Below, piece by piece: positions 28,245-41,007 of a stretch of DNA of 64,000 nucleotides. Both the position numbers and the translations under genes were made by a program. The number at the start of each line of letters is the position of its first letter. The stretch's first letter is position 1. The stretch is taken from contig CAWIJM010000031.1 of assembly GCA_963836445.1 (NCBI GenBank), positions 18,680 to 82,679 of the forward strand, given 5' to 3'. Below the pieces are notes generated by a model that was not told the DNA's origin, searched no databases, and saw only the letters and a program-made list of their open reading frames with translations. The DNA comes from an uncultured Actinomycetes bacterium. Lineage in GTDB: Bacteria; Actinomycetota; Acidimicrobiia; IMCC26256; JACDBD01.

Positions 28245-28309
28245 TTCTCTCCTGTCGCCGTCGCAAGCTCCGGCTTTGCGGTGACGGTCGGCAAAGCCGC
28301 CGCCACCGC
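28245..28309 (-). repeat. Structured element copy 2 (leader of gatC)
   Basis: GCGGTGGCGG CGGC TTT GCCG A CCGTCACCGC AAA GCCG GAGCTTGCGA CGGC GACAGGAGAGAA-ATG; TAGACT at 28314-28319. Confidence 0.9.
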
Positions 28310-28338
28310 GCGGAGTCTACGGATCAGCTGCCCGCGCC

Positions 28339-29196
28339 TCAGCGGCGTTTGGACCGCGGTCCCGACCCGTAGTCGCCGAACGGGTCGTCGCGCTCGCGCA
28401 CGGCGTCGCGGAACCCGATCTCGCCGGACCGGGCCACGAAGTCGAGGCCCTCCTGCGTGTGCCGCGCGACGCCGTCGAACAGCGTGCCCAGCGTCCGGGT
28501 CGAGGCCATCCCCATGCTCTCGGCCGTCTGGTTGCACAACAGCTTCAGCATCTGGAGCTGGTTGAGCGGCAGCCGGGCCATGCGCCGCGCCAAGGCGGCC
28601 GCATGTTCCTGGAGCTCCCCGTCGGGAACGGCCTCGAGGATCAAGCCGATGCGAGCCGCCTCGGGCGCGGGGATCTCGTCGCCGGTGAGCAGGTAGCGCT
28701 TCGCCTGCTCCAAGCCCATGCGGTACACCCACATCGCCGTGGTGGGCGTGCCCCACACGCGTGCCGGCGGATAGCCGAACACCGCGCTCTCGCCGGCCAC
28801 GATGAGGTCGGCGCACAGGACCATGTCGGTGCCGCCGGCGATGCACCAGCCCTGCACGGCGGCGATCGTCGGCTTCGACGCGTACCAGAGCTTCATGTAC
28901 GTGGCGACGAACCGCGACATCATCTGGTAGTCGGCGACCGAGTCCCACACCCGCTCGCGCGCCTCCCCCTCCGCGGCCTGCGCCTGCGTCGACCAGTCCA
29001 GCCCGTACCCGGCGCAGAACGCGGGCCCGTCGGCGCGCAGGAGGATCACGCGGACGTCACGGTCTGCGTCGGCGTCGTCGATCGCGGCCGCGAGCTCGTC
29101 ACGCAGCTCGGGGGTGATCGTGTTGTACTCCTCGGGCCGGCTGAGCACGACCGAGCGCACGCCGGCATCGGTCTCGGTGCGGACGGCGGTCGACAC
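28339..29196 (-). CDS. Enoyl-CoA hydratase/crotonase family protein
   Basis: AFCAGYGL, KPTIAAVQGWCIAGG, LLTGDEI. Confidence 0.88.
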   Translation of the reverse strand: MSTAVRTETDAGVRSVVLSRPEEYNTITPELRDELAAAIDDADADRDVRVILLRADGPAFCAGYGLDWSTQAQAAEGEARERVWDSVADYQMMSRFVATYMKLWYASKPTIAAVQGWCIAGGTDMVLCADLIVAGESAVFGYPPARVWGTPTTAMWVYRMGLEQAKRYLLTGDEIPAPEAARIGLILEAVPDGELQEHAAALARRMARLPLNQLQMLKLLCNQTAESMGMASTRTLGTLFDGVARHTQEGLDFVARSGEIGFRDAVRERDDPFGDYGSGPRSKRR

Positions 29197-29210
29197 GGCA
29201 GACGGCCGGG

Positions 29211-29519
29211 TCAGGCGTACGGGTCGCCCGGGTTCCCCGGGTGCTTCCACCAGTCGTCGGGAGCGGGCGACCACTCCGGATCGGGGTAGATGCAGTCGAC
29301 CGGGCAGACGGGGACGCACTTCAGGCAGCCGCTGCACAGCTCCGGGACGATGATCACGTCGATGCCGTGATTGAAGATCGCGCCGAATTGCTCCGGGCAG
29401 TGGCGGAGACACGCGTCGCAGTTGATGCACTCGGACATCTCGATGCGCAGCGGCACGTTCTGCCACTTGGGGTTGCGCTCGTGCGCCTCGATGCGCTCGT
29501 CACGCGTCTTCGCCGGCAC
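29211..29519 (-). CDS. 4Fe-4S dicluster ferredoxin
   Basis: CINCDACLRHCP and CSGCLKCVPVCP; TAGGCT -10 box 6 nt before GTG. Confidence 0.9.
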   Translation of the reverse strand: MPAKTRDERIEAHERNPKWQNVPLRIEMSECINCDACLRHCPEQFGAIFNHGIDVIIVPELCSGCLKCVPVCPVDCIYPDPEWSPAPDDWWKHPGNPGDPYA

Positions 29520-29605
29520 GAAGCCAGCCTAGACCGGGAACTAGACCGCTCGGTCAAGCAGCGTTACGATCCCGCGCCGTTCGGGCGACGCTCTGAGGAG
29601 GATCG

Positions 29606-38034: not shown

Positions 38035-38044
38035 GCGCGCGGCC

Positions 38045-38470
38045 TCACGGCGCGACGAACGTGGCCCAGCCCTTGATCGCGGTGCCGCCGGTCTGGCGCG
38101 TGCACACGAGCTCGAGGTCGACCAGGCGCTCCCCACCGTCCTCGTATTGCTTCGTGACGGTTCCTGAGCACGTGAGCGTGTCGCCGGGCCAGACCTGCTC
38201 GCGGAATTGGACGCCGAACCGGCGCACGTTGGCCGCGCCGAGCCAGTCGGTCACGTACGTGGCGAGGATCCCGGCTTGGAGCATGCCGACCGAGAAGACG
38301 GTCGGGAACCCGGCGCTCTTGGCGTACTCCTCGTCGTGGTGGATCGGGTTGAAGTCGCCCGACGCGCCCTGGTAGCGCACGAAGTCGGTCCGCGTGAGCG
38401 GTCCGAAGTCGCGCGGCTCGGCGGCGGTGCCTTCGCTGAGGTCGTCCCACGTCACGTCAGTCGTCACCAT
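38045..38470 (-). CDS. MaoC-family dehydratase
   Basis: YQGASGDFNPIHHD. Confidence 0.88.
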   Translation of the reverse strand: MVTTDVTWDDLSEGTAAEPRDFGPLTRTDFVRYQGASGDFNPIHHDEEYAKSAGFPTVFSVGMLQAGILATYVTDWLGAANVRRFGVQFREQVWPGDTLTCSGTVTKQYEDGGERLVDLELVCTRQTGGTAIKGWATFVAP

Positions 38471-38475
38471 CGTCG

Positions 38476-38922
38476 TCAGCCCTCCGTCGGCGGCTTGCCG
38501 GTCTCGATCGCGGTGGACCGCATCTCGGCGACGAGCTCGCCGGCCTCGTCGCGGAACTCCTGCACCGTGACCACGAACGTCATCGTCCCGCCCCGCTTGC
38601 CTTCCTTCTCGTAGATGTCCTCGACGCGGGTCTGCGCCGAGAGCTTCGTCCCAGCCGCCGGCGGCGGCCCGTGGAACACGAACTCGCGTCCGCCGTCGAG
38701 GACGCGCCGCATGTCGAGCTGGAGATCGCCCCACCTCGCGGCGCCCGGCGGCGCCCAGAACACCGACGACACGAGGAACGTCGGCGGCGACACGGGCGCC
38801 GGGTCGTCGAGGTACTCCGGGTTCTGCGACTTCGTCGCCCGGGCGAACTCGCGCACCTTGCCCCGTTCGACGACCAAGTCGTACGCCTCGCCGGTTTGAC
38901 CGATCGCTCCCTTGTTCACCAT
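38476..38922 (-). CDS. MaoC dehydratase N-terminal (HadA-like) hot-dog protein
   Basis: VERGKVREFARAT, SPPTFL; adjacent to MaoC. Confidence 0.82.
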   Translation of the reverse strand: MVNKGAIGQTGEAYDLVVERGKVREFARATKSQNPEYLDDPAPVSPPTFLVSSVFWAPPGAARWGDLQLDMRRVLDGGREFVFHGPPPAAGTKLSAQTRVEDIYEKEGKRGGTMTFVVTVQEFRDEAGELVAEMRSTAIETGKPPTEG

Positions 38923-40941
38923 CAGTCGGGTCCTTCCTCGAGGAGCTTGCGGAACGCCGCCTCGTCGAGGAGCGTGACGCCGAGCTGCTCGGCCTTCGCC
39001 AGCTTCGACCCCGGATTCTCGCCCACGACGACGTAGCTCGTCTTCTTCGACACGCTGTTCGTGACCTTGCCGCCCCGCGCCTCGATCTCGGCCTGCGACT
39101 CCTCCCGGCTGAGGTCCTCGAGCCCGCCGGTGAGCACGAACGCGTGACCGGCGAGCGTCTGCTCCACGTCGGGCGCGGCGGCGCGCGACGGGCCCTCGAA
39201 GTTCACGCCCGCCTCCCGCAGCCTCTCGACGAGCTGACGCGTCCGGTCGCGGGCGAAGAACTGGTGCACGCTCTGAGCGACGATCGGGCCGATGCCCTCG
39301 ACCTGGGTGAGCTCCTCGACCGAGGCGTCGACGATGCGGTCGAGGTGACCGAGCTCGCGGGCGAGGTCCTGCGCGGTGGCCCACCCGACGTTCGGAATGC
39401 CCAAGCCCGACGAGCAGTCGCGCGAGGTGCTGCGCCTTCGATGCCTGGATGTTGTCGACGAGCTGCTGCGCGGACTTCTCGCCGATGCGGTCGAGCTTCA
39501 CGAGCCCTTCGACGTTGAGCCCGTAGAGGTCGGCGGCATCGGAGAGCAGGCCGGCGTCGATGAACTGGCGGACACGCTCCTCGCCGAGCCCGTCGATGTC
39601 CATCGCGGCCGCGAAGTGGACGATCCGTCCCCACCGCTGCGCCGGGCACTCGACGTTCACGCAGTTGGTGGCGGCCTCGCCCTCGGCGCGCACGAGGGGC
39701 TGCCCGCACGCCGGGCAGTCCTTCGGGAACTTCCACCGCCGGAGGCCTTTGCGGCGCTTCGCGACCACCGGGCCGACGACCTCGGGGATCACGTCGCCCG
39801 CCTTGCGCACGATCACGGTGTCGCCGATGCGCACGTCCTTGCGGGCGACCTCGTCCTCGTTGTGCAGCGTCGCCTGCTAGACGGTGGAGCCGCCGACGAA
39901 GACGGGCTCGAGCAGGGCGAACGGCGTCGCGCGCCCGGTGCGGCCGATGCTCACCATGATGTTGCGCAGCAGCGTCGTCTTCTCCTCGGGCGGGAACTTG
40001 TACGCGATCGCCCAGCCGCGGCGCCTTGCTCGTCGCGCCGAGCTCGTCGCGCTGGCCGAGGTCGTCGACCTTGACGACGACGCCGTCGATCTCGTACTCG
40101 AGGTCGTGGCGGAGCTCGAGCATCCGTTCGCAGAACGTGTACACGTCGTCGAGCGAGTCGAAGCGGGCGATCCTGGGGTTCACGGGGAAGCCCAGGCCGC
40201 GCAGCCAGTCGAGCGTCTCGGTGTGCGTGCGCAACCGCGGGCCGCCCTCCTTCACGCCCGGCTGGTAGCAGAACACGTCGAGCGCACGTTGCGCGGTGAT
40301 TCTCGGGTCCTTCTGGCGCAGGCTCCCGGCGGCCGCGTTGCGGGGGTTCGCGAACAGGCGGCCCTCGGCTTCCTCCTGGCGGCGGTTGAGCGCCTCGAAC
40401 GCCTGGATCGGCATGTACACCTCGCCGCGGATCTCGAGGCGGGCCGGGAGGTCCTCGCCTTTCAGCTGCTTCGGCACCGACTCGATCGTGGCGACGTTGG
40501 CGTGACGTCCTCCCCGACGTGCCCGTTGCCGCGCGTGGCGGCACGCGCGAAGCGGCCGTCCTCGTAGAGCAGTGAGACCGCGAGACCGTCCATCTTGGGC
40601 TCGCACACGAACGTGACCGGGTCGATGATCTGGCGCTCGATGCGCTTCCCCCACGCCAGGAGGTCGTCGAGGTTGAACGCGTTGTCGAGCGACAGCATCG
40701 GCAGGAGGTGCTGGACCTCGGTGAACGTCGTCGCCGCCGCGGCCCCGACCTGTTGGGTGGGCGAGTCGGGCGTCACCAGCTCCGGGAACTCATCCTCGAG
40801 GCTCTCGAGCTCGCGGTAGAGCTCGTCGAACTCGGCGTCGGAGATCTCGGGCTCGTCGTGCTGGAAGTAGCGCTCGCGGTGGTAGCGGACGAGCCCGCGG
40901 AGCTCCTTGACGCGGGCTTCGACCTCGGGCGGAACGGCCAA
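38922..40941 (-). CDS. ligA: NAD-dependent DNA ligase (frameshifts and one in-frame TAG at 39877-39879)
   Basis: [43 protein letters not shown]-terminal BRCT. Confidence 0.96.
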
Positions 40942-41007
40942 TTTCTCTCCTGTCGCACTCACAGGCTCGTGCTTTGCGACGACGGTCGGCAAAGCCGCCG
41001 CCGTCGC
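40942..41007 (-). repeat. Structured element copy 4 (leader of ligA)
   Basis: GCGACGGCGG CGGC TTT GCCG A CCGTCGTCGC AAA GCAC GAGCCTGTGA GTGC GACAGGAGAGAAA-TTG; TAGCAT at 41012-41017. Confidence 0.9.

Follow-up and report, generated by a model that had tools for sequence, protein, structure and literature searches.

A repeat of about 57 nucleotides (nt), built of two hairpins, occurs five times in a 64-kb stretch of DNA (64,000 nt, called the window throughout) from an uncultured bacterium of the Acidimicrobiia. It is probably a mobile, non-autonomous element that inserts between the -10 box and the start codon of genes and works there as a portable 5' untranslated region (5' UTR), made of a hairpin and a Shine-Dalgarno sequence (SD); we infer that it functions as a 5' stabilizer and a ribosome-binding site (RBS). 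Comparison of filled and empty sites shows that the element is mobile or recently mobile and that it lies, oriented and structured on the sense strand, in the slot between -10 and start codon of otherwise leaderless genes. Its range is limited to a single genus-level lineage of uncultured Acidimicrobiia, with a few sister genera, and there it reaches about 130 to 150 copies per 3 Mb. The original prediction for this DNA had described the two hairpins; the copy number, the fixed position between -10 and start codon, the SD tail and the link to leaderless genes are points that it missed.

Architecture of the repeat unit

Read in the sense direction, the unit in the five window copies runs from hairpin 1 through a short A/G-rich linker to hairpin 2. 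In hairpin 1, a 10-bp outer stem closes CGGC-TTT-GCCG with a bulged A, an apex identical in all five copies. Hairpin 2 is GCCG-GA-GC-nn-GC-GA-CGGC, changed to GCAC...GTGC in the ligA copy. Counting G-T pairs, the outer stem is paired at 10/10 positions in the gatC, convergent and ligA copies and at 9/10 in copies 1 and 5, where the mismatches are one G.G and one C.A. All of these sequences agree with the original prediction. Hairpin 1 appears in the minimum-energy folds of all five copies (z -2.6 to -3.8); hairpin 2 was read from the sequence in each and was also seen in the folds of copies 1 and 3.

The copies lie at 16969-17025 (copy 1, + strand, upstream of a luciferase-like monooxygenase gene), 28254-28310 (copy 2, - strand, gatC), 36953-37010 (copy 3, - strand, between convergent genes), 40952-41008 (copy 4, - strand, ligA) and 47220-47276 (copy 5, + strand, methylmalonyl-CoA mutase). 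Copies 2, 3 and 4 fall inside the 28245..41007 span to which the original prediction was attached, and copies 1 and 5 outside it. With at most one mismatch, the core motif CGGCTTTGCCG occurs eight times in the window, which has a G+C content of about 70%, compared with 1.95 expected; none of 100 shuffles reached eight. The 64-kb window had no Rfam match at the gathering score, and the best E-value for the gatC copy, in a search to E 10, was 0.82, well short of the cut-offs.

Filled and empty sites among relatives

The window belongs to a metagenome-assembled genome (MAG; G000) of 3.05 Mb in 31 contigs, an Acidimicrobiia assembly that is 62% complete. At its gatC locus (- strand), a -10-like hexamer, TAGACT (28314..28319; aligned in 17 same-genus loci, TAGAAT in three), is followed by hairpin 1 (28278..28309, arms GCGGTGGCGG and CCGTCACCGC), hairpin 2 (28257..28274) and, at 28242..28253, the SD AGGAGAG (28247-28253) and the ATG (28242-28244) of a gene whose product is GatC. 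Of 17 aligned genus loci, four are filled (G000, G003, G013 and G004) and 13 are empty. The empty form consists of TAGACT (TAGAAT in two), 7 nt and a GTG or ATG start, and the SD is missing in all 13. The filled form has the hexamer as in the empty form, 2-3 nt, the hairpins, AGGAGAGA and the start codon. On a maximum-likelihood tree built from 1.5 kb of flanks in 15 genomes, occupancy requires four changes, at least three of them forced by well-supported branches; filled G004 is sister to empty G011 with support of 100/100.

Copy 4 has the same arrangement at ligA (- strand), with the hexamer TAGCAT (41012..41017), hairpin 1 (40976..41007, arms GCGACGGCGG and CCGTCGTCGC), the hairpin 2 variant GCAC-GA-GC-CT-GT-GA-GTGC (40955..40972) and, at 40939..40951, the SD AGGAGAG (40945-40951) and the TTG start (40939-40941) of a product with NAD-dependent DNA ligase domains. 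Eight same-genus genomes are empty here, the start codon following TAGGCT or TAGCAT by about 7 nt. The element lies 3' of the -10 in G000, G013 and G004, also in G001, and 5' of it in G001, G007 and G012 (loci L195, L197 and L198, the last from an unpublished genome). In these three loci TTGCGA of hairpin 2 lies 19 nt before the hexamer, possibly forming a hybrid promoter, an arrangement seen only at ligA of the three relatives.

On the + strand, copy 1 follows the hexamer TACGAT (16960..16965), which stands 4 nt 5' of hairpin 1 and is kept in 14/14 aligned same-genus loci. Hairpin 1 (16970..17001) has nine of its ten outer pairs and the CGGC-TTT-GCCG apex with the bulged A, hairpin 2 (17005..17022) reads GCCG-GA-GC-TT-GC-GA-CGGC, and an SD-like GGAGAA (17029-17034) and an ATG (17038-17040), together 17029..17040, open a gene with a Pfam Bac_luciferase match. 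A full copy is present in eight genomes, four are empty (TACGAT-N6-8-ATG) and G016 is rearranged. Copy 5, also on the + strand, follows TAGCCT (47211..47216; kept in 10/10 aligned loci) with hairpin 1 (47221..47252, 9/10 outer pairs), a hairpin 2 variant with the loop region CCGG (47256..47273) and, at 47277..47289, the SD AGGAGG (47277-47282) and a GTG start (47287-47289) of a gene matching Pfam MM_CoA_mutase; in the alignment five loci are filled and five empty (TAGCCT-N6-7-GTG).

Copy 3 lies between convergent genes, and only G000 and G009 are filled among 14 aligned genomes. Its hairpin 1 (36978..37009, arms GCGGCGATGG and CCGTCGCCGC) and hairpin 2 (36956..36973), both on the - strand, are bracketed by an 11-nt direct repeat, GCCTGATTTGT on the + strand, whose left copy (36944..36954) contains the stop codon of the + strand gene ending at 36949 and whose right copy is at 37011..37021. 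At two loci orthologous to window positions 36950-37013 (L212 in G017 and L214 in G008), an unrelated terminator-like hairpin flanked by T and A runs stands at the place that the element has in G000 and G009.

G000 and its close relative G009 differ in occupancy at three of the five window loci. Through the flanks of copies from other species we located 30 sites that are empty in G000, 13 of which carry TANNNT-N5-10-start at the junction, compared with 0.4% at random; three more were recognized by eye. Fifteen loci are filled both in G000 and in genomes of other species. Inspection of junctions by eye showed that the native 6-8-nt spacer is partly replaced, that filled and empty forms often have start codons with different first bases, and that a few junctions repeat 3-4 nt including the start codon. 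In G018, remnants at the ligA (L199) and copy 1 (L239) loci have lost the hairpins and kept the SD tail and spacer, with break points in a GACGGCG direct repeat near both ends of the unit. Copying of the 5' arm of the outer stem from the target was also considered and was not supported: the empty gatC site resembles the arm, but other filled and empty pairs do not.

A hexamer 6-8 nt from the start codon, as found in the empty sites, is the signature of a leaderless gene. Across G000 there are 226 sites of the form TANNNT-N6-8-start followed by an open reading frame (ORF), compared with 19-54 at other spacings, a pattern in the sequence that indicates that a large share of its genes may be leaderless. 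The richness of Actinobacteria in leaderless genes is reportedly the subject of published papers.

Position of copies relative to promoters and genes

A profile made from the five window copies and rebuilt from 86 gave 147 nhmmer matches in G000 at E<1e-3, 121 of them near full length; hairpin-1-only and hairpin-2-only pieces are present as well. Because the assembly has many broken frames, coding strands were called by a codon-usage score. By this score, 68 of the 121 full copies have same-strand coding sequence in their downstream flank and 21 have coding sequence there on the opposite strand; 32 flanks are uncalled. Start codons that open a co-oriented coding ORF are found within 40 nt downstream of 67 of the 121; 33 of these codons follow the element by 9-12 nt, and an SD-like motif accompanies 52 of the 67, the tail being purine-rich. 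On the upstream side, 39 of the 121 copies (30 among the 67) have a TANNNT beginning between -16 and -6 of the element, compared with 0.6% of random positions, and its frequency peaks at -9 to -11. The usual distance from a -10 box to +1 is 6-8 nt; with the peak where it is, transcription would start at the foot of hairpin 1. Elsewhere, copies are found between cistrons or at a distance of 2-6 nt from an opposite-strand gene's stop codon.

The -10 hexamer varies from locus to locus and exists in empty sites, and the element has no promoter of its own. An outward-facing promoter using TTGCGA of hairpin 2 as -35 was rejected: TANNNT stands at the right distance downstream in 1/121 copies, which is no enrichment. 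Pfam matches, scanned for 60 of the 67 downstream genes, revealed no common theme. They include GatC, LigA domains, class I and II tRNA synthetases, an SRP54-type GTPase, deformylase, 5'-3' exonuclease, D-Ala-D-Ala ligase, methylmalonyl-CoA mutase, acyl-CoA dehydrogenases, thiolases, TetR and two-component proteins. Linker subfamily and genomic context are weakly associated, in a classification whose pattern failed on 52 of the 121 copies.

In the window, ligA (38476-40941, - strand) is split among three ORFs that overlap and differ in frame (40462-40992, 39203-40654 and 38476-39834; see also G000 loci L108 and L110). Several other long ORFs match Pfam only in part, as in an aldo/keto reductase match covering residues 17-58 of 400. 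Such patterns suggest that the assembly has many indel errors, not that the genes are real pseudogenes.

Copy number and lineage range

A pattern scan of one genome per species returned at least 107 loci, nearly all in MAGs labelled Acidimicrobiia or Actinomycetota. Loci L003 and L033 were rejected as element copies; the rest of the element is missing there, and they look like chance matches. A covariance model built from 105 copies detected the element in 18/18 same-genus genomes, with 25 to at least 130 matches each, and in two of six other genomes of the family. It detected none in 16 other families of the order, nor in 150 other Actinomycetota genomes that are at least 80% complete. Two of the carriers are unpublished genomes, G012 being counted among the 18 and G022 being one of the two outside the genus.

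Tandem arrays of two to four units, with periods of 62-113 nt, occur at G000:C4:46701-46998, C1:261833-262022, C1:84585-84782, C13:160451-160579 and C21:29822-29954. Their spacers often carry the reverse complement of a stop codon, and the arrays are minisatellite-like. The arrays noticed are tandem and same-strand; no systematic count of inverted neighbors was made. In nested composites, the two hairpins of one unit enclose a complete unit of another subfamily with its SD tail, hairpin 1 coming first (G000:C31:3030-3151, upstream of the window; C17:168877-169000; C13:124391-124482; C1:335147-335237; C8:90847-90967). They look like insertions into the linker of another element, and the same build is found in other species (L023, L042 and L081).

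Covariation and folding

We aligned the five window copies with 100 of the 101 near-full-length copies from the pattern-fetched loci L001-L107 (alignment A1, 105 copies). The fetch pattern for copies from other genomes fixed the inner stem and most of hairpin 2, so that the informative pairs in A1 are the ten outer pairs and one pair of hairpin 2, which is GC in 92 copies and CG in nine. The two-hairpin structure is 96.1% paired in A1, compared with 92.6 +/- 0.2 in shuffled alignments. Both-side changes occur at 12/20 pairs (4.3 +/- 1.2 shuffled) and in 68 cells (13 shuffled), and 29 further pair types are found (16.6 shuffled). Pairing, both-side changes and pair types were each matched by 0/500 shuffles, and slid controls were 19-66% paired.

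A second set comprised 116 distinct G000 copies, found by the profile rather than the pattern. It was 94.5% paired, compared with 89.5% when shuffled, and had both-side changes at 11/20 pairs and in 112 cells, values again reached by 0/500 shuffles; one pair of hairpin 2 is GC in 95 copies and CG in 20, and the next is CG in 101, GC in five, AU in three and UA in two. Covariation is significant in both independent sets, which supports a structure maintained beyond what sequence conservation alone gives. The compensatory changes that the original prediction had read in the window therefore held up in larger alignments. G.U pairs outnumber A.C combinations by 43 to 9 in hairpin 1 of A1 and by 67 to 18 across both hairpins of the G000 set; therefore the structure is kept on the sense strand and not on its complement. 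The maintenance of structure that the original prediction inferred is to this extent supported, and it is strand-specific. A candidate third helix, joining the 3' arm of hairpin 1 to GCGACGG of hairpin 2, is 88% paired, has no both-side change and does not exceed shuffles.

The outer stem drifts, and a recurrent subfamily has a GGA/GGA internal loop in place of three outer pairs. The apical parts are near-invariant in A1, with the tandem G.A/A.G kept in 105/105 copies, the bulged A in 104/105 and the inner stem in 102-104 of 104. Such parts, namely the CGGC-UUU-GCCG apex with its bulged A and, in hairpin 2, the tandem G.A/A.G with the C-NN-G loop, might be a docking site for one global, lineage-specific RNA- or DNA-binding factor that co-regulates transcripts or nucleates on DNA, and the restriction of the element to one lineage would fit a factor of this kind. 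However, the invariance is partly imposed by the fetch pattern, though the profile-found G000 set shows the same, and the downstream genes are heterogeneous. We consider a docking site improbable.

The alternative pairing

The original prediction also held that hairpin 1 has a mutually exclusive alternative, formed by GGCTTTGC and GCAAAGCC, that could act as a switch. The complementarity itself stood: across the 105 copies the two segments, of 8 nt each, are complementary in 96% of cells, and an A/G polymorphism retains either U-A or U-G pairing. However, no pair of this helix changed on both sides in A1, 231/500 shuffles do as well, and forcing the helix costs +7.9 to +16.6 kcal/mol relative to the two-hairpin fold in the five window copies. 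We treat the complementarity as a by-product of conserved sequence.

A regulatory RNA switch would make hairpin 1 and the GGCUUUGC/GCAAAGCC helix alternative on and off states for the downstream gene. Besides the lack of covariation and the energetic cost, several observations argue against it: hairpin 1 is transcribed first and is present in every minimum-energy fold of the window copies, copies with an AGGA linker require a bulge to form the alternative helix, and the SD is sequestered by neither conformer in the centroid folds of four of the five copies. In addition, the heterogeneous downstream genes form no regulon, the element is present at a given locus in some close relatives and absent from it in others, and Rfam returned no match. 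The switch, as originally proposed, is scarcely credible.

Mobilization

The Y1 transposase family (PF01797) was found in none of 25 genomes of the family, G000 included, and in none of the 21 element-bearing genomes, four of which are at least 94% complete; control genomes gave matches. Reverse transcriptase was found in only 2 of the 21 (G008 and G012), so RNA-mediated spread is not supported. When the first 12 nt of the consensus were compared by eye with the reverse complement of its last 12 nt, there was no match and thus no terminal inverted repeat; a 9-nt direct repeat lies near both ends of the consensus. Nor is there a regular target duplication: flanking repeats of at least 6 nt accompany 16/121 copies (1.9 expected) and are mostly array spacers. 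Copies in 5' UTRs have no flanking repeats except 3-4 nt at a few junctions, and the convergent window copy has its 11-nt repeat; some junction repeats contain start or stop codons. A scan for an autonomous parent, which covered G000 at its 62% completeness, found no pair of hairpin-1-only and hairpin-2-only pieces bracketing 0.3-4 kb.

The repeat could instead be purely selfish, its hairpins serving as cis mobilization signals that are recognized as single-stranded DNA (ssDNA), as are REP/RAYT and IS200/IS605 ends, or by some host or foreign enzyme, and bring the host no benefit. Its promoter-proximal location would then reflect target choice, for example of melted open-complex DNA, and the SD tail would survive because copies without an SD kill the gene that they hit. 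Several features fit such a repeat: occupancy that often differs among close relatives, downstream genes without functional coherence, resident copies whose conservation does not exceed that of the flanks, and the existence of nested copies and tandem arrays. The excess of G.U over A.C fits one DNA strand equally as well as RNA. However, no PF01797 was found in the 21 element-bearing genomes, four of them at least 94% complete, there are no terminal inverted repeats or regular target duplications, and G000 holds no hairpin-1...ORF...hairpin-2 parent. Moreover, filled loci are always oriented with the SD before the start codon, which demands either selection or a directional mechanism. A purely selfish repeat seems to us rather unlikely.

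Element-bearing RNA contigs

RNA data were Logan contigs of four soil metatranscriptome runs, from which transcript starts and ends are unreadable and in which DNA carry-over is possible. Contig depth is 70-250 over the element and 0-17 beside it, a contrast that reflects the number of copies across the whole community. In one contig gatC is joined to the element, and another is an empty-site form. In the latter (run X8, 508 nt), position 28243 is joined to 28312 with six other letters between them; it represents the gatC locus of a relative present in that sample.

Comparison with known repeats

By description, the closest analogues of the element appear to be Neisseria REP2 and MIRU. In the passages of Delihas 2011 (PMC3184786) that concern them, Neisseria REP2 and Borrelia IR stand directly before genes and contain two stem-loops together with a promoter, an RBS and an ATG. 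Like REP2 and Borrelia IR-A as described there, the present element lies immediately 5' of genes and has an RBS and two stem-loops near the 5' end: 67/121 copies have this position, 52/67 have an SD-like motif, and empty sites have no SD. Unlike REP2 in these passages, it has no promoter or ATG of its own; -10 hexamers are not enriched downstream of it, and the upstream hexamer is locus-specific and pre-exists in empty sites. It also belongs to a different phylum, and the two were compared by description rather than by sequence. The REP2 passages of that article (PMC3184786) do not mention leaderless genes.

The MIRU passages of the same article (PMC3184786) report that MIRU overlap neighboring genes and that their sites are found both filled and empty, with 4-nt direct repeats. 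The element resembles MIRU as characterized there in being actinobacterial, in its size class (40-100 bp), in its G+C-rich internal inverted repeats, tandem arrays and filled and empty sites, in the short direct repeats at some junctions, and in ends that abut or overlap start and stop codons of neighbors. It differs in that MIRU, according to those passages, are intercistronic, contain small ORFs coupled to their neighbors and number about 40-50 copies, whereas the present element, again compared by description, is mostly a 5' leader behind a promoter and has about 130-150 copies. The original prediction had likened the repeat to MIRU and other ssDNA hairpin repeats; the likeness to MIRU holds for an interspersed hairpin repeat with filled and empty sites, and the hairpins may act as ssDNA or as RNA.

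The REP, BIME and REPIN sequences of Proteobacteria are likewise short, G+C-rich imperfect palindromes in high copy with compensatory stems, some copies lying just past stop codons; here there are 147 matches in 3.05 Mb, with a 14-bp bulged hairpin. Unlike them, the element has two different hairpins and an SD tail, lies mainly in 5' UTRs rather than 3' UTRs and is accompanied by RAYT in 0/21 element-bearing genomes. Correia elements (CREE) are often 5' of genes, and in the passages on them and on miniature inverted-repeat transposable elements (MITEs) (PMC3184786) the likeness extends to small size, non-autonomy, frequent placement on the 5' side of genes, alteration of expression signals and strain-variable occupancy; filled and empty sites among relatives are found here too. 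Unlike those elements, described in the same passages as having terminal inverted repeats and a fixed target duplication, the present one has neither. The element shares features with REP2, MIRU and Correia and lacks defining features of REP/RAYT and of MITE. Apart from two unrelated human-genomics matches, its sequence strings were not found in the published main texts searched, and we found no publication linking a repeat to leaderless genes.

Proposed function

Insertion would convert a leaderless mRNA into a leadered one. The new 5' end would be a very stable 14-bp hairpin with little or no 5' overhang, expected to shield the transcript from 5'-end-dependent decay, and the 3' end of the leader would be an exposed, unpaired SD leading to canonical initiation. 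A 5'-terminal hairpin is a classical protection against 5'-end-dependent decay, and an unpaired SD permits canonical initiation. Where a copy adjoins a stop codon or lies in a convergent spacer, its role would be that of a REP element at a 3' end. A short SD leader, as in the G018 remnants, could be what is left when the hairpins are later lost. Spreading, RNA function or both may require the stems.

Several observations weigh against a portable 5' UTR. No mobilizing enzyme was identified among the 21 element-bearing genomes (Y1 in 0/21, reverse transcriptase in 2/21), and 54/121 copies lie outside the 5' UTR position. In the 15 pairs filled in both genomes, identity is 0.82 in the element and 0.83 and 0.84 in the flanks; resident copies are thus no better conserved than their surroundings, and purifying selection on them is not shown, in an assembly (G000) that also looks error-prone. 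The direction of gain and loss comes from parsimony and the uniform sequence of empty sites, and allelic recombination could restore empty sites. The RNA contigs, many of them element-bearing, are silent on 5' ends, and one crosses the promoter. Finally, target preference could by itself produce the promoter bias, and the host would gain nothing.

A more specific proposal is that the element targets transcription start sites, entering the few bases between -10 and +1 of leaderless genes, perhaps as DNA melted in the open complex, supplies a complete leader of 5' hairpin and SD, and is an active converter of leaderless into SD-led genes, with short SD leaders remaining once the hairpins are lost. 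We offer this tentatively, as possible but doubtful. It would call for a means of mobilization other than a Y1 transposase or a reverse transcriptase.

Implications

Small hairpin repeats are common, but they are usually loosely placed and of unclear effect. Here, some 20 related genomes give an unusually clean picture of before and after, in which a gene is either leaderless or preceded by a 70-nt structured leader with an RBS, and slots are hit repeatedly. The element poses the question of what moves a repeat without inverted ends, regular duplication or a recognizable transposase. It also cautions covariation-based RNA discovery, since significant covariation here marks a mobile repeat and not a riboswitch. 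If the function that we infer is correct, the element, combining a 5' hairpin with an SD, would be a natural and compact 5' UTR module for hosts of high G+C content, and would offer a testable mechanism for the interconversion of leaderless and SD-led genes. Were start-site targeting to prove true as well, it would provide a mobile-element route for the evolution of translation initiation in Actinomycetota.

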